Positions 20,611 to 27,920 of a DNA stretch of 47,156 bases are shown in pieces. The notes under the pieces were generated by a model that worked only from the letters and a program-made list of their open reading frames with translations, made no database searches and had not been told where the DNA came from. The position numbers were made by a program, and so were the translations under genes. The stretch covers positions 1 through 47,156 of the forward strand of contig JBHIFL010000030.1 of the NCBI GenBank assembly GCA_046761065.1, in the 5' to 3' direction. How positions within the stretch are numbered: the stretch's first letter is position 1; each line of letters starts with the position of its first letter. This DNA is from Candidatus Heimdallarchaeota archaeon (GTDB lineage: Archaea > Asgardarchaeota > Wukongarchaeia > Wukongarchaeales > JBHIFL01).

Positions 20611-21411
20611 CTATCTGAATTCTTTCATTTTACTCACTATGTGCTGAACCCTTTTGCTATCGACGGGATTCGTCGTCACTCCCTCTTTCTTGAACCATGT
20701 ACCAATGATAAACCCATCTGTATAATCTAGATAAGTTTCCAGATTGGAAGGGGTCACTCCGCTGCCTACAAGGATTGGAACCTCCGGGACCGCCGCTTTG
20801 ACCGTTTTCACACGTTCAATAGCAGGTGCAACACCTGTTTCCGTTCCACTTACGATCAAAGCATCTGCAATACCTCGATAATACGAATCTTTCGCGGTTT
20901 GCGTAAGTGATTGAACTCCCAGAGGAGTTGCATGCTTTACAAGGACATCCGCAAAGATTTTAACCTCGCTTTGAAGTTGGGTACGCAATCTCAGGGTTTC
21001 ATGGGCCCTACCTTGGATGAGGCCTTGATCCGTAACCATCGCCCCAGTGTGGATATTGACCCGGATGAACTCGGCGTCTGTTGCACTGGCAACCGCCATC
21101 GCCGCCATGGCATCATTTCGGAGGACATTGATCCCTAGTGGGAGCTCAAATCTTCTTTTCACTTCGTTAGATATACGAGTCATATATGCAATTGTATGAG
21201 CAGGAACATGATCTGGGAAAAAGGGGACATCCCCGAAGTTTTCCACAAGTATTCCATCGACCCCACCCTTGGTCAAAGTTTGCGCATCTGTTAAAACGGT
21301 CTTCTGAACACTTTTGAAACTCCCTGAAAAAGAGGGTGAGCCAGGCAACGGTCTTAAGTGGAGCATCCCGATAATTGGCTTTTTTACCTGAAAGAGGTCT
21401 TCTAATCTCAT
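20611..21411 (-). CDS. btpA: BtpA/SgcQ family TIM-barrel protein
   Basis: IIGMLHL.PLPGSP, VENFGD.PF, GINVLRND, ADVLVKH, VGSGV. Confidence 0.9.
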   Translation of the reverse strand: MRLEDLFQVKKPIIGMLHLRPLPGSPSFSGSFKSVQKTVLTDAQTLTKGGVDGILVENFGDVPFFPDHVPAHTIAYMTRISNEVKRRFELPLGINVLRNDAMAAMAVASATDAEFIRVNIHTGAMVTDQGLIQGRAHETLRLRTQLQSEVKIFADVLVKHATPLGVQSLTQTAKDSYYRGIADALIVSGTETGVAPAIERVKTVKAAVPEVPILVGSGVTPSNLETYLDYTDGFIIGTWFKKEGVTTNPVDSKRVQHIVSKMKEFR

Positions 21412-21595
21412 GCGTGCTCCCTTCTTTCTAGGGCCTTCTTTAGAATCATCTTTTAATTCGTACAATTTGTACCAAGAACACGTTTCCTTTTCCCCTGCGG
21501 AACTCTTCCCGGGTTTTTCTCAAGGGCTTCCTTCGGTCGCTTTAAATTTGGCAGGCATTTTTCCGGGAGATACCACATTCCGGCTTTTCCTTTAT

Positions 21596-22012
21596 TTACA
21601 ATTCAGTAAGTAATGGAATCAATCCTTTAAAATGATCGTCAAAGGTTGCGACATAGATATTTCCTTCAAACAATTTCGATAAAGCGAGAATTGAGCAATC
21701 TGTGAACGAAAGTCCTCGATCACAGTATTTGAGGAAGAGTTCCCATGTAGCAAAGAATTCTGTCTCGCAAATATGGATTAATTTTATTCGGGGTGAATCA
21801 AGGATGAATTCCCATATATCCTCCAGTAAACGTTTATCACGAGTTCTGACCAGTGTTAAAGTAGCTGTCTCATCAAATACAAAGTTTGATACAAAGATCT
21901 GCCCAAATTTCCCAGTTAAACATTCTTTCATTAGGTCTCTGGCCTGCGGATGGTTAAAATCATCTTCATTCCGAGTTGCGAGAATAAATCCCGTATCTAA
22001 AAGAACGACCAA
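21596..22012 (-). CDS. vapC: PIN-domain toxin (VapC)
   Basis: LLDTGF, FDET, LSFTDC, ATFDDHF; TTG start just after the antitoxin stop. Confidence 0.9.
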   Translation of the reverse strand: MVVLLDTGFILATRNEDDFNHPQARDLMKECLTGKFGQIFVSNFVFDETATLTLVRTRDKRLLEDIWEFILDSPRIKLIHICETEFFATWELFLKYCDRGLSFTDCSILALSKLFEGNIYVATFDDHFKGLIPLLTEL

Positions 22013-22013
22013 C

Positions 22014-22289
22014 CTACGCACCTTTTCGTTGGTATAAATAATCATCAACTGTAGTTGATGTATCGCGAATTCCCCATTTCCTTGGTTTTTGTAAAAGAAT
22101 CCAAGCGGGATCTGTCTCTAAATCACTTGTATCTTCTGGGATTTGTACCTTCTCGTATTTTTTGGCCGCTTGTTTAATTAATTGCCCCAACAGTTCTTTT
22201 TTTGTCATTTTCTTTCCCAAGAGTATGTAGCGCGCTCGTAATCGTTCCAATAATATCTCATCTTCCTCATCTAATCGCACTGTGCTCAT
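22014..22289 (-). CDS. Putative antitoxin (VapB-like)
   Basis: 91 aa; N-terminal STVRLD strand-helix; ends TVDDYLY; directly upstream of vapC. Confidence 0.8.
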   Translation of the reverse strand: MSTVRLDEEDEILLERLRARYILLGKKMTKKELLGQLIKQAAKKYEKVQIPEDTSDLETDPAWILLQKPRKWGIRDTSTTVDDYLYQRKGA

Positions 22290-22884: not shown

Positions 22885-23394
22885 TTATTCAATCAGTTCT
22901 GGTGCAGCTTTTCTCACTGCTTTCGCAATTATCAGCGAAAGAATAATTCCTGAGCCCGCTTGGCCTAAATTGAAGGGTAATTCTTCAATAGCCCCGGCAA
23001 GCCCACCATACCACGGCATTAAAGCTTCTCCAGTAAAATACCCGGCAACCATAATGGCAGCACCCACAATGACCGCTAGGACATTGCGCCACGGGGTCTC
23101 AGAGTTACGGAGGCGTCCTGCGACGAACCCTTCCATACCTTTAACTACAAAGGTGAGGGGCGCAAATAACGGGAACCCAATCAGGTCAGCGAAAGCCGAA
23201 CCGACACCTCCCGCGAACGCGCCCACACGCCAGCCAAAAAGGAGGGCGGCAGTTAAAACCATAGTGTCTCCTAAGTTGAAATACCCTCCGGTGCCAGGAA
23301 TTGGCACGCGAATGACTAAAGTCGTCGCGGCTACAGTGGCAGCAAAAACAATGGATGCAGCAATTTCTTTTGAGTTAACCATTTGAATTTTCAC
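22885..23394 (-). CDS. ECF transporter S component (COG4720; HmpT/PdxU2-like)
   Basis: AATVAATT, VPIPGTGGYFNLGD, GGVGSAFADLIG, APLTFVVKGMEG, PFNLGQ. Confidence 0.88.
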   Translation of the reverse strand: MKIQMVNSKEIAASIVFAATVAATTLVIRVPIPGTGGYFNLGDTMVLTAALLFGWRVGAFAGGVGSAFADLIGFPLFAPLTFVVKGMEGFVAGRLRNSETPWRNVLAVIVGAAIMVAGYFTGEALMPWYGGLAGAIEELPFNLGQAGSGIILSLIIAKAVRKAAPELIE

Positions 23395-23513
23395 CTCTAT
23401 ATGATTCAGTAAGTAATGAAGAATGTGTGGAGAGGAGGGTGATAGCTAAATATATATAAACTATTCTCTAACTATAGAATAAACCCTATATATTGAAACA
23501 GGAACCACTACTA

Positions 23514-25001
23514 ATGGCTGCAGAGATAATGTACAAATGCACCCGTTGTGGAGAGATCTTCAAAGGAGAAGAGTTCCTACAGCTATGTCCAAAATGTAAG
23601 GGAATCTTGAACATTAGCTATGATTACGAGGCAATTCAGCAACACCTCACCCCGAAGATCTTACAGGAGCGGAGTCTAGGCATCTGGAAATATGCGGAGC
23701 TCCTCCCTCTAGCAAGTCGAGCAAACATCGTGTCACTGGGAGAGGGCGGGACCTTCCTCCACAAATGTGAGCGCCTAGGCCGTGAACTCGGCCTAACAAA
23801 TCTATACATTAAGAATGAAACGACAAACCCAACGGGTTCGTTTATTGATCGAGGGACAGCGGTTGAAGTTTCCAAAGCCAAAGAGCTGGGCATCCGGGCC
23901 TTGACCTGTGGGACTACTGGAAATCTGGGGGCCTCCCTTGCCGCTTATGCAGCTAAAGCGGCGATGACATGTACGGTGTATTTGTCAGAACCCATTGATC
24001 AGGGCAAGCTTTACCAAATGATTGCATTTGGGGCGACTATTAAGTCAACCAGGGTGTTTAATGAAACTCAAGTTAAGGAGGAAAGCGTAAAGTCGCATAC
24101 ATTGCCAGTCACACCGGCAGACCCCACATTTCTCGAAGGAGTTAAGACAACGGGGTTTGAGATCTGTGAGCAACTTAACTGGAGTGCTCCAGATCAAATC
24201 ATTGTGCCAATGGGGAATGGGGGGCATCTTTCCATGATTTGGAAGGGCTTAAAGGAGTTAAATTTATTGGGGCTCCTATTAGACCTATCCACAACCATGG
24301 TTGGAGTCCAAACTGCGGGCTGTGCGCCAATTGTGCGGGCAATTCAGAAGGGAGCAAAGGAAGTCACCCCGGTGGAGAAGACCAACACGATTGTTAAGGA
24401 TCTAAGCTTTAAAAACCCCTTGATGGGCTACCTAGCCGTCAACAGGTTACAAGAGTCAGGAGGGACGGCAGTAGCGGTTTCAGATCAGCAAATGCTCAAA
24501 GCAGCTCACCATCTTGCTGAAACAGAAGGCATTTTCGCGGAATTAGCAGCTGCATCGACTATTGCATGTGCGAAATGGCTAGTAGAACGAGGAGAACTAG
24601 ATCCAGGCGAAGTGGTGGTGTGTGTGATTACCGGAATGGGTCTGAAGGACCCAACTGCCATGCGAAGGTTCACCGAACGGTCAAAGAAACTAAGAGGATT
24701 TCTCCACCCGAGTACTGAAAGAACGTTCTCGACGAGGATGGGGGAAACAAAACAACTAATCCTTGAACTCTTAGCAGACAAAGAACAGTATGGGTATTTT
24801 ATTTGGCAAGAACTCACTCACCGATTTGACATTAAAATCAAAATCCCCACGGTGTATCAACATCTGGCCGAGTTGGAAAGGCAAGGTCTGATTAGACAAA
24901 CCAGAATGGAAAAAATGTTTGGGAAGCCAGAGAGGAAGTACTATGCCTGCACAGATCGAGGAAAGGTCGTATTAAGCGCCTTAAAACGAATGAGAGAATG
25001 A
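23514..25001 (+). CDS. Threonine synthase-like (fold-type II PLP) domain lacking the catalytic Lys, fused to a C-terminal PadR-like wHTH
   Basis: Zn ribbon, SLGEGGT, NPTGSFIDRG (canonical K is I), VPMGNGG, ITGMGLKD; then KQLILELL..YGY.IW, PTVYQHLAELE..GLI, RKYY..T..G. Confidence 0.9.
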   Translation: MAAEIMYKCTRCGEIFKGEEFLQLCPKCKGILNISYDYEAIQQHLTPKILQERSLGIWKYAELLPLASRANIVSLGEGGTFLHKCERLGRELGLTNLYIKNETTNPTGSFIDRGTAVEVSKAKELGIRALTCGTTGNLGASLAAYAAKAAMTCTVYLSEPIDQGKLYQMIAFGATIKSTRVFNETQVKEESVKSHTLPVTPADPTFLEGVKTTGFEICEQLNWSAPDQIIVPMGNGGHLSMIWKGLKELNLLGLLLDLSTTMVGVQTAGCAPIVRAIQKGAKEVTPVEKTNTIVKDLSFKNPLMGYLAVNRLQESGGTAVAVSDQQMLKAAHHLAETEGIFAELAAASTIACAKWLVERGELDPGEVVVCVITGMGLKDPTAMRRFTERSKKLRGFLHPSTERTFSTRMGETKQLILELLADKEQYGYFIWQELTHRFDIKIKIPTVYQHLAELERQGLIRQTRMEKMFGKPERKYYACTDRGKVVLSALKRMRE

Positions 25002-25076
25002 TTATAGGAACAATCCGGAAAATCGGCAGTTGGAGTTGGCTTTAAAGGATAGTCATTCGGGTTTTCTTGAAAAAGC

Positions 25077-25895
25077 TTAAAAGAGGATTGAAAGGTCGAA
25101 AAACCAATAAAGAATACTGATTAACAGAGTTACAAGAACCAAAATCAAGACAAACCAATCAATTGCCTCCATTTTGACCTCTGAATAATAAGATCGTTTT
25201 GGTGCTGCCCCAAAGCCACGTGCTTCCATCGCCTCAGCCAAGCGGTAAGATCTTTTTAGAGCTACGATGACCAAAGGAATAAGCAACCCTGCATATCGTT
25301 TGATTTTCGTGAAAAAACGGCAGTGTTGAAATTCCACGCCTTTGACCATATTCGCTTTGATGATGGTCTCCGCATCGTCGATCAAAACAGGGATGAAGCG
25401 AGCGCTAGCTACTATTCCAAAAATTAATTCGTAAGGAAAACCGATTTTACGGAGTGCAATTCCAAGATCCTCTAAATCCGTTGTCAAAATGAAGAAAATA
25501 ACTATACCTGTAAATATTAGCAATTTGAAAGCAAGGAGAGTTCCATATTCTATCCCATATAAAAAGATTTCCCCCCAACTTAGCGGATCCCAAATATTCA
25601 GTGGTTTAGGTGATAAAGAATATCCGTAGATAACGGTATTCGCGAAAAAAATGAAAATGACAAAATAAAAAACACTCCTCATGATACTTGTCCATTCTTG
25701 AAGGATCCTAGCCCCCATAGCAAGGAAAATGAGTCCGAGAAACACGCCTAGTAGCAAGGAGAAGCGTACAAATAAAAGTGAAAGGATGATTGCCATTACC
25801 ATGAGACAGAGTTTCGTTCGAGGATCTAATCCATGGAAAAAAGATCGTTTGTCTTGGGCAAGCAGGATAATATCCGAGAAGGCCAAAGAGCTCAC
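25077..25895 (-). CDS. ecfT: ECF transporter T component
   Basis: LDPRTKL, RFIP, AEAMEARGF. Confidence 0.92.
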   Translation of the reverse strand: MSSLAFSDIILLAQDKRSFFHGLDPRTKLCLMVMAIILSLLFVRFSLLLGVFLGLIFLAMGARILQEWTSIMRSVFYFVIFIFFANTVIYGYSLSPKPLNIWDPLSWGEIFLYGIEYGTLLAFKLLIFTGIVIFFILTTDLEDLGIALRKIGFPYELIFGIVASARFIPVLIDDAETIIKANMVKGVEFQHCRFFTKIKRYAGLLIPLVIVALKRSYRLAEAMEARGFGAAPKRSYYSEVKMEAIDWFVLILVLVTLLISILYWFFDLSILF

Positions 25896-26686
25896 CTGTA
25901 TGTGTAGAGTTGAAGAAGTTCTTCTTGTGGATTAAATCCCTTTGAGATTAGAGCTTTTTGTATCACAATTCGTTGTGGAACGACAAGATTAGTCTTTTTC
26001 AATACTTCTCCTCTACTTAAAAGCACAGCTGGGTCACCATCTGCAAGTTTTGTGCCGTTCGAAAGGAGGATAAGGCGGTGCAAGTTCTCACTCACAAAAT
26101 CTTCTTCATGAGTATTTATCACTAGAGTCACCCCTTCTGCGTTTAGGGAAAGAAGAACTCGCGAGAATAAGAGGCGTTGCCTTCCATCTTGACCCAAGAA
26201 TGGTTGATCTATTAAGAGTAAGGAGGGCTGCCGGATAAGAACCGAAGCAATTGTCACACGTTGTTGTTCGCCACGACTCAGAGTAATTACTCGTCGTTGC
26301 TTGAGGTGTTCGAGTTCCAGCAATTCTAAAACCGAATTAGTTCTACGTTTCAATTCGGTAGAGGATAATTTAAGGGTCTTAGCAGCGTAATGGAGTTCTT
26401 CTTCAACAACTCCCATGATAAACTGATGATCAGGGTTTTGAAAGACATATCCAACAAATTGAGCTAGTTCTGCGACTGTTGTATCCCTCGTATCCATCCC
26501 ATCAATGAGCACACGCCCATTTGTAGGAGTCAACAAACCGATAAAGTGCTGAAGTAATGTGGTTTTCCCCGATCCGTTTTGACCCATGATTGCGACAGCC
26601 TCCCCTCTTTTAATTGATAGATCAATGCCTCTCAGAGCATGGGTTCCATCGGGATATATAAAATGCAAATCTTCGGTAACAATCAA
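25892..26686 (-). CDS. ecfA: ECF ATPase subunit with degenerate Walker B (DQP)
   Basis: GQNGSGKT, VFQNPD, LSRGEQQR, LLIDQP, NTH. Confidence 0.92.
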   Translation of the reverse strand: MIVTEDLHFIYPDGTHALRGIDLSIKRGEAVAIMGQNGSGKTTLLQHFIGLLTPTNGRVLIDGMDTRDTTVAELAQFVGYVFQNPDHQFIMGVVEEELHYAAKTLKLSSTELKRRTNSVLELLELEHLKQRRVITLSRGEQQRVTIASVLIRQPSLLLIDQPFLGQDGRQRLLFSRVLLSLNAEGVTLVINTHEEDFVSENLHRLILLSNGTKLADGDPAVLLSRGEVLKKTNLVVPQRIVIQKALISKGFNPQEELLQLYTYR

Positions 26687-27528
26687 TAGAACTCCTCCAA
26701 AACCGTAACCAACTCTTCAGGAGTTAGCGGTAATGAATTCAAGTGGGCTTTAAGGGTAGGAAGTCTTAAAGCATAGAGTGTGGCAAGAGGCAAGCTGATT
26801 CCAAGTTTTTCCCATCGATTCTCCTCCATCAAGATTTTCCGAGGCTCCCCGCAGGCAAGGAGTTCACCATCAACGAGTAAAACGAGTTTATCTGCAATAG
26901 GTAGGGTTTCATGAAGGCGATGTTCAACCAAGACAATTGTGAGGTCCTCTTGTTTCAAGGTATCCAAAACTGAGATGATTTCCAACCGGCTTCTTGGATC
27001 TAATTCAGACAACGGTTCGTCAAGAACTAATATTTCAGGTTTCATAGCTAATGCAGCCGCAATTGCAACCTTCTGCTTTTGTCCTCCTGAGAGTTTGGGA
27101 ATACGTTTATCTAGCAACTCAGAAAGGTTGAGTGCCTCAATAACCTCTTCTAACCGGGTTTTGATTTCTTCTTTTGGGAGTCCTAAGTTTTCAAGGCTAA
27201 AAACAAGTTCTCTTTCAACCGAAAGAGAAAAGAGTTGATCCTCTGTATTTTGAAAAACAAATCCCACATGTCCCGCCATTTCGCGTACTTTTTTTTCCCT
27301 AGGATCGATCCCAAGAACTTGTATTGTTCCCTGCATTTGACCTGGGTAAAAGTGTGGAATCAACCCATTGAGACATCTAACTAAGGTGGATTTTCCCGAA
27401 CCGGTTGGACCAGTGATTAGAACAAATTCGCCACGTGAGATTTTTAAGGTGATATTCAAAAGAGACCAGTGTTTGGCACTCAAATATTTGAAATAAAGAT
27501 TTTTAATACTAATTACCAACCGATTCAC
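26683..27528 (-). CDS. ecfA: ECF ATPase subunit (canonical motifs)
   Basis: GPTGSGKS, LNGLIPH, VFQN, LSGGQKQK, LDEP, VEH. Confidence 0.93.
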   Translation of the reverse strand: MNRLVISIKNLYFKYLSAKHWSLLNITLKISRGEFVLITGPTGSGKSTLVRCLNGLIPHFYPGQMQGTIQVLGIDPREKKVREMAGHVGFVFQNTEDQLFSLSVERELVFSLENLGLPKEEIKTRLEEVIEALNLSELLDKRIPKLSGGQKQKVAIAAALAMKPEILVLDEPLSELDPRSRLEIISVLDTLKQEDLTIVLVEHRLHETLPIADKLVLLVDGELLACGEPRKILMEENRWEKLGISLPLATLYALRLPTLKAHLNSLPLTPEELVTVLEEFY

Positions 27529-27920
27529 TCGCCTATGTTTATTTCATCTGCTCTCATCGTCCCTCCATCTCAGCAATTGCCCAAGTTGTACTGCTCTTAC
27601 GGTGACAGCATTATACTAAGACATCTACCCTTTTTTGTAGTTTAGATATAAAACATCTAAAAATTCTTCCCTAAATATAGGGTGAATCTGATATTGAGTG
27701 AGTAATGAAGATCTACTAATAGATCAACGTTTATTGCCATACTGTGTCTATTATGGGGAAACACGCAAGGGAGACTGGTTCTTTCAATACAAATATGGAA
27801 ATGGAATGTTATACATATATTATGATTACGGGCCATTTTACTTCTCTAGGATATGATAATCGATGCAATCAAAACACTCAGAGTGAATTATAACACTTCG
27901 AAAAATATTCCTTAAAGAAA

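Follow-up and report, generated by a model that had tools for sequence, protein, structure and literature searches.

The window analyzed here, positions 1 to 47,156 of contig JBHIFL010000030.1 of a Candidatus Heimdallarchaeota archaeon (assembly GCA_046761065.1), encodes a protein in which a threonine synthase (ThrC) fold that has lost its Schiff-base lysine is fused to a C-terminal PadR-type winged helix-turn-helix (wHTH), and which is divergent from the gene of an HmpT/PdxU2-type substrate-binding (S) component of an energy-coupling factor (ECF) transporter. The preferred reading, with a probability of about 0.76, is that this protein is a homodimeric one-component transcription factor for vitamin B6 supply, which would sense pyridoxal phosphate (PLP) or pyridoxamine phosphate (PMP) non-covalently and shut that supply off. 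Comparison across genomes places it in a conserved family of Lys-less ThrC-fold/PadR fusions whose predicted targets are S genes of the HmpT/PdxU2 type and/or pdxST; a symmetric predicted operator marks the target promoters and usually the regulator's own, and links the regulator to S and pdxST even where the genes are unlinked. It is very probable that the protein regulates the S gene and/or pdxST, and quite probable that its ligand is a B6 vitamer; its action as a holo-repressor rather than as an apo-activator is favored with some reserve.

A threonine synthase fold without its lysine

An earlier note on this DNA, made from the sequence alone, had read NPTGSF-I-DRG, with the codon ATT at 23844-46, where active enzymes carry the PLP-binding Lys. 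Codon reading and alignment bear this out, with Ile111 of the window protein opposite Lys61 of ThrC from T. thermophilus. A sequencing error, which the note had considered unlikely, is made more so by the same codon in four assemblies and by the loss of Lys among homologs: the locus is contiguous at 17-39x, with no variant at codon 23844-23846, in assemblies from four runs of one hydrothermal-vent study (which may include the source sample), and Lys is absent from all 120 of the closest homologs, which read I (96), L (12), V (8), T (2) or M (2) there, so that both a sequencing error and a recent pseudogene are ruled out. After clustering at 50% identity, 67 of 69 scorable wHTH-bearing representatives lack the Lys, whereas 75 of 78 representatives without a wHTH keep it; Lys loss in ThrC-wHTH homologs, which had been set beforehand as a test, is thus family-wide. 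A second wHTH clade has Arg at the Lys position. The nearest named homologs carry the labels Ca. Borrarchaeum and Ca. Heimdallarchaeota, which makes the host an Asgard archaeon.

The window protein resembles ThrC (2ZSJ, 6CGQ, 2D1F, 1UIM) in its fold, in 35-37% identity, in its cofactor pocket and in its predicted dimer, and differs in lacking the Lys, in a degraded substrate site, in an Asp for Ala240 and in the added wHTH. The phosphate-binding loop PMGNGG (residues 232-237) is kept, as had been claimed, and the cofactor contacts N137 (or D), G234-x-G236, E343 and T373 are conserved as in true ThrC. At the substrate site, N154, S155 and R160 of Thermus ThrC read T, P and F, K165 and N235 are kept, and the Thermus substrate-phosphate set (K116, N154, S155, R160, N188) is not present as a whole. 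Ala240 of Thermus ThrC is replaced by D296, with an acidic residue (D/E) in 59 of the 69 wHTH representatives, and this family-specific Asp296 may select pyridoxamine phosphate. Pfam confirms the C-terminal PadR-like wHTH proposed earlier (Table 1), in which K413, GY427-428 and YQH448-450 are near-invariant. The earlier description of the locus was correct as far as it went and overlooked two features, the operator array treated below and an N-terminal zinc ribbon, whose CxxC..CxxC pattern is common to long-type ThrC as well.

The AF2 model (mean confidence, pLDDT, 84) consists of a ThrC domain and a separate wHTH on a flexible linker, and the top Foldseek matches of the model are ThrC. Modeling in silico supports a homodimer joined at the ThrC domains: the homodimer model scores 0.78, against 0.00 for the best control, with runs that agree in at least 59% of contacts and a pLDDT of at least 82. 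Of solved pairs, 20 of 30 reach the mark used for the dimer score, as does 1 of 23 single chains, and the score obtained here may reflect likeness to (memory of) solved ThrC dimers.

Association with B6 uptake and synthesis genes

The start codons assigned earlier are amended to what are probably ATG 23514 for the regulator and ATG 23382 for S, the latter preceded by a GAGGTGA Shine-Dalgarno sequence, and the intergenic region is therefore 23383-23513. The layout reported for the locus stands, with S divergent from the regulator and ecfA/ecfA'/ecfT converging on its other side.

A locus search with the single window protein as query yielded mostly ordinary ThrC. Among the 76 loci that combine PALP and wHTH (one duplicate included, several ending early at contig ends), the S gene adjoins the regulator in 44 and pdxS-pdxT in 9, one locus has only an EamA transporter, and S and pdxST never stand together beside the regulator; at wHTH-less ThrC loci S is found in 2 of 30 and pdxST in 0 of 30. 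The adjacency to ECF-S or pdxST genes that the earlier note had proposed as a check is thus present (44 + 9 of 76). The control of B6 import which that note envisaged gains from the association with S, and is amended in that the predicted regulon is wider, taking in synthesis (pdxST) too. In the nearest genome-level relative (73% identity) pdxST holds the slot that S holds in the window. A tree obtained by a quick search with midpoint rooting (seven partial or duplicate rows excluded; row L316 is the neighboring true thrC and not the regulator), which leaves the monophyly of the two wHTH clades unestablished, has a pdxST locus as the window's sister row; on this tree the pdxST association requires 7 changes, at least 5 of them forced by strong branches.

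The HmpT/PdxU2-like identity proposed for S is upheld by PF07155 (Table 1) and by HmpT/PdxU2 4HZU_S (E 2e-15), its only match in the PDB; it is the only PF07155 gene found in the genome. PdxU and PdxU2 are listed under PF07155 (PMC9997740), and HmpT, although originally named for hydroxymethylpyrimidine (HMP), binds pyridoxamine (PMC4860826). Compared with HmpT/PdxU2 of Lactobacillus brevis (4HZU), a member of the same family, the pocket residues E41/H84/Q87/Y120/N140/Q143 read D/K/E/Y/N/Q in the window S (3 identical, 1 conservative, 2 changed) and S136 reads E; the pocket residues are near-invariant in 42 regulator-linked S proteins. The S component is predicted to be a B6 vitamer importer subunit and the main target of the regulator.

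The PdxK cut-off is reached in 0 of 41 Asgard genomes. A PurM/AIR-synthase-like protein, which scores below the HypE, ThiL and SelD cut-offs, is encoded beside S or the regulator at nine Nitrososphaerota-type loci (L112, L126, L139, L140, L142, L146, L149, L152, L153) and in 21 of 22 clostridial S loci (L342-L364); it is a candidate non-orthologous B6 vitamer kinase.

A predicted operator at the target promoters

A symmetric predicted operator, TATARG-N6-CYTATA (in extended form CCTATATATAGG), lies directly against the TATA box of the target or overlaps it. The 12-mer CCTATATATAGG occurs with at most 2 mismatches in 38 of 41 divergent spacers, and the spacer-centered TATARG-N6-CYTATA, which covers both the TFB recognition element (BRE) and TATA, with at most 1 mismatch in 34 of 41 loci. 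The palindrome is not an ordinary TATA box, since a genome has it only once and its presence tracks that of the regulator: the exact pattern stands at one place only, namely the regulator locus, in 9 of 10 genomes. The operator also accompanies S where S sits apart from the regulator (L112, L177, L211, L262, with a variant in L263), and in 8 genomes where no regulator was detected (four of them less than 82% complete) its score at S does not exceed 0.2. In 28 homologous loci the distance from the 12-mer to a TATA-like element is exactly 7 nt, and in about 9 loci TATA is 28-31 nt from an in-frame start, a spacing that fits leaderless transcripts.

In the window, a degenerate two-unit array at 23467-23496 stands beside the TATA element at 23449-60 and matches a pdxST relative position by position (the footprint was compared with L365, G040 (pdxST) and L368); a spacer-centered site, TATAGA-N6-CCTATA, lies within it at 23473-23490. 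A large regulon in the window's genome is ruled out by a position weight matrix (PWM) scan that gave no match above 16.7 and only 14 matches of 13 or more. Three further candidates from the PWM are unsupported: a match before an AIR-synthase-like gene (C74, 11.0), which 29 related loci do not have, another before a second ECF module (C82, 13.6) and a tandem arrangement on C12.

Several predicted operators stand at other genes. The 70%-identical ortholog of L368 has a two-unit operator and faces an Ldh_2-family gene, not S or pdxST. In the Bathyarchaeon locus L327 the first operator has an EamA gene downstream of it (an EamA gene with an operator is found in L001 too), and a second perfect operator, at L327:7671, lies between divergent radical-SAM-like and GNAT-like genes, assigned by eye. 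An operator-like CCCTTATATATGGG at G000:C82:10315 (L229:4316), with a PWM score of 13.6 that is not significant alone, has an unclassified S-like membrane gene on one side and, on the other, a fused ECF ATPase-ecfT module.

Thermococcaceae: a regulator apart from its predicted targets

In T. chitonophagus the regulator WP_068578498.1, a PRK05638 member with Arg for Lys, has aCPSF1 on one side and a kinase gene on the other and is distant from pdxS and from an S gene whose product is 46% identical to that of the window, and the palindrome TCAAG-N6-CTTGA stands before both pdxS and S. In a comparison of 31 Thermococcaceae genomes, in which the motif background is 1.8% of windows, this palindrome is found with at most 1 mismatch at 18 of 18 pdxS and 22 of 26 S promoters of genomes that have the regulator, and at 0 of 3 pdxS and 1 of 3 S promoters where it was not found, the exception being a 1.4-Mb genome. 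No P value is attached to these counts because the motif was derived from the same promoters that were scored and the genomes are kin. The pattern, the strongest test of the reading, joins regulator, pdxS and S in a single predicted regulon without recourse to gene adjacency. The Thermococcaceae site overlaps or follows the TATA box, which is the position of a repressor. At the Thermococcus-type loci L438-L458, S follows a class III aminotransferase-like gene (assigned by motif), with the operator between them.

Proposed mechanism and alternatives

In the mechanism proposed here the protein would dimerize through its ThrC domains; lacking the Lys it would form no internal aldimine and make no threonine, and PLP or PMP would instead be bound non-covalently in the intact cofactor pocket. 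Domain closure on ligand binding would reposition the two wHTH domains, and the ligand-bound form would occupy the operator array over BRE, TATA and start, such that when B6 is sufficient uptake or synthesis would be repressed, with autorepression from the shared promoter. For the window's genome (91% complete), in which neither PdxS nor canonical PdxK was found, salvage control is proposed; it would be exerted via the S component, probably together with the neighboring ecfA-A'-T module.

Several observations weigh against this reading. At least eight members of the second clade keep the Lys, so that its loss is the rule and not universal. The window's own operator is degenerate (PWM 9.5), and the motif is missing at pdxS or S in the regulator-positive genomes G007, G017, G037 and G027. 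One point in favor of the reading, that PdxS went undetected in 20 of the 21 genomes carrying S next to the regulator, counts for less than it appears to, because 30 of 41 Asgard genomes lack PdxS in any case and related genomes are not independent samples. The S pocket departs from that of HmpT at H84 (K) and Q87 (E). The ligand, DNA binding and the sign of control are all predicted, and in the clade of the window the most strongly conserved 12-mer is placed 7 nt upstream of TATA at the target, where, as with RbkR, an activator would bind (PMC5397151).

This last point bears on the opposite wiring, a variant of the proposed mechanism in which the ligand-free protein, bound upstream of BRE, would recruit transcription factor B (TFB), activate the target and repress itself, and B6 would cancel the activation, as B6 binding does for PdxR of Listeria. 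The spacing of exactly 7 nt (one BRE) at 28 loci, with leaderless spacing downstream, would suit such an activator, and RbkR sites about 5 nt from TATA have been interpreted as activating (PMC5397151); against it, the sites in Thermococcaceae and in the Arg/Lys clade overlap or follow TATA, and the spacer-centered palindrome covers BRE and TATA in 34 of 41 loci. The opposite wiring is a tentative but live option, and its share is contained within the confidence given to the proposed mechanism. The two wirings share one logic, target off when B6 is high, and the sign may differ between clades. An improbable alternative keeps the regulon and changes the ligand to something other than a free B6 vitamer, for example an amino acid, with or without phosphate, or the aldimine that PLP forms with one. 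GabR-type regulators, which require PLP plus an amino acid, are a precedent, part of the substrate site is retained (K165, G136-N137), and in three Bathyarchaeia (L316-L318) an Arg-type regulator is divergent from the true thrC of a hom-thrC cluster and is itself followed by S. However, the equivalents of R160, N154 and S155 are lost, S84/T85 vary freely, the spacers between thrC and regulator in L316-L318 showed no match to the operator, and the recurring targets are B6 synthesis and uptake.

A further proposal, that S imports HMP or riboflavin and that the regulon is centered on pyrimidine/thiamine with pdxST secondary, is decidedly unlikely. HmpT was first named for HMP (PMC4860826), PF07155 carries a riboflavin S family label, RbkR controls a ribU in Thermococci (PMC5397151), and a few loci (L112, L126, L378) have ThiR-like, ThiT and ThiL-like genes close to S. 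The operator, however, is common to pdxS and is unlike the Thermococcal RbkR consensus TnnCA-N4-TGnnA, a difference on which the Thermococcal S is rejected as the ribU of RbkR; moreover neither ThiD nor ThiE was found in the window's genome, whose single ThiN domain sits in a ThiR-like protein, and no FMN (flavin mononucleotide) riboswitch was found before the clostridial S homologs. Least credible of all is a retained enzyme activity, via PMP or another residue, which would make the protein bifunctional in the manner of RbkR. NCBIfam does name the architecture threonine synthase (PRK05638), the window protein passes the PRK08197 and TIGR00260 cut-offs, and a few members keep the Lys. Fold-type II chemistry nevertheless requires the Lys, I, L, V, M, T, R, A and N are all tolerated at position 111 across the family, and K211 and K378 are not compensating gains because they are conserved to an equal degree in true ThrC. 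Lys-bearing paralogs are moreover present in the genome, in which four other ThrC-like genes were found and the Lys was read in three.

The ECF module and other features of the locus

Adjacency to ecfA/A'/T is lineage-specific (window and syntenic L365) and no feature of the family; L207 has an A/A'/S cluster. Co-regulation of the module with S is no more than suggested. The possible site CCTAAATATAGG about 140 nt upstream of ecfA lies inside a 29-nt block that is identical in L365 and is not significant genome-wide, given the 14 PWM matches of 13 or more. The promoter of a 65-residue CxxC..CxxC gene, intact in L365 (11229-11426) and represented in the window by a remnant (27716-27915, + strand) whose start has changed from ATG to ATA and whose frame is broken, could also explain the conserved block 27655-27690. 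In EcfA', Gln replaces the catalytic Glu of Walker B, and its ATPase site is possibly degenerate. Downstream of S (window 20611-22289) lie a BtpA gene and a PIN toxin-antitoxin-like pair; L365 has neither the PIN pair nor the DJ-1 gene.

Table 1. Features of the regulator locus (window coordinates; a point denotes no strand).
Feature	Position	Strand	Basis
HmpT/PdxU2-like (COG4720) S component of an ECF transporter; 165 aa, start ATG 23382	22885..23382	-	PF07155, E 4e-30
Shared TATA element, TTTATATA on -, TATATAAA on +	23449..23460	.	resembles a weak operator half-array too
Predicted operator array, 12-mers TCTAACTATAGA (23467-78) and CCTATATATTGA (23485-96), 18-bp period	23467..23496	.	footprint, family consensus
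Predicted transcription factor, ThrC-fold pseudoenzyme-PadR, 495 aa	23514..25001	+	best fold matches are threonine synthases
N-terminal zinc ribbon (C9, C12, C25, C28)	23538..23597	+	invariant in 40 homologs
PALP (fold-type II) putative sensor domain	23730..24635	+	Pfam PF00291, E 2e-66, above cut-off
ATT (Ile111), Schiff-base lysine position	23844..23846	+	codon read; alignment; four assemblies
PadR-type winged helix	24759..24977	+	PF03551, E 2e-14; 53.9 vs gathering score 27
ecfT (CbiQ)	25077..25895	-	PF02361, E 3e-28
ecfA' ATPase, Walker B LLIDQP	25892..26686	-	
ecfA ATPase	26683..27528	-	
Possible operator CCTAAATATAGG, ~140 nt upstream of ecfA	27670..27681	.	PWM 13.2; suggestive only

Relation to known regulators and meaning

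The MocR family, to which PdxR belongs, is reported absent from Archaea (PMC5320631). Like PdxR/MocR, the window protein joins a wHTH to a PLP-enzyme fold as sensor; the core PdxR/MocR regulon is pdxST, pdxK and pdxU, with DMT transporters and acetyltransferases as accessory targets (PMC5320631), and the genes found here are pdxST and pdxU-type genes, with EamA (L001, L327) and a predicted acetyltransferase (L327). Their wHTH is N-terminal and of the GntR type and their sensor a fold-type I aminotransferase-like domain, whereas here the wHTH is C-terminal and PadR (no GntR match) and the predicted sensor a fold-type II ThrC domain that has lost the Schiff-base Lys. To judge from its domains and predicted targets, the protein would work like bacterial PdxR while lying outside MocR on both domains. 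Reuse of an enzyme domain as cofactor sensor and a small regulon of synthesis and transport recall ThiR, an inactive ThiN sensor, and RbkR; these have other folds, other vitamins and an N-terminal HTH, and RbkR is still an active kinase. The palindromic, often tandem, sites beside TATA are likewise a property of RbkR (PMC5397151).

The Thermococcales family PRK05638/NF004170 has the same Lys-less PALP plus C-terminal wHTH architecture (match over residues 14-497 of 502), with Lys replaced by Arg in P0267 and NPTGSF-R-DR in 26 of 27 matches where the window protein has Ile; the window protein scores 305.9 bits, below the curated cut-off of 421, and the operator spelling differs. The architecture is present in NCBIfam only as "threonine synthase", a name which for PRK05638 looks like a misannotation, and in the ESM Atlas under automatic names. 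In the literature searched (subscription papers and RegPrecise lie outside this coverage) no description of a ThrC-wHTH B6 regulator family was found, nor any described regulator of archaeal B6 uptake or synthesis genes. A P. furiosus study predicted cobalamin, riboflavin and thiamine regulons and none for B6, and B6 transporters and salvage kinases have been named as open gaps (PMC9997740).

The finding offers a candidate B6 regulator for Asgard archaea, Bathyarchaeia, Nitrososphaerota, Thermoplasmatota and Thermococcales, would indicate the class of substrate taken up by an S component widespread in archaea, and would correct the "equivalog" annotation PRK05638, a source of false threonine synthases in genomes. 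The fullest form of this proposal, an archaea-wide and undescribed B6 regulator with a fold-type II PLP pseudoenzyme as sensor and a predicted operator and regulon, in which Asp296 may select PMP and the PurM-like protein would be the missing salvage kinase, is regarded as rather more plausible than otherwise, and the Thermococcales regulon (e.g., that of T. chitonophagus) makes the reading testable in culturable archaea.

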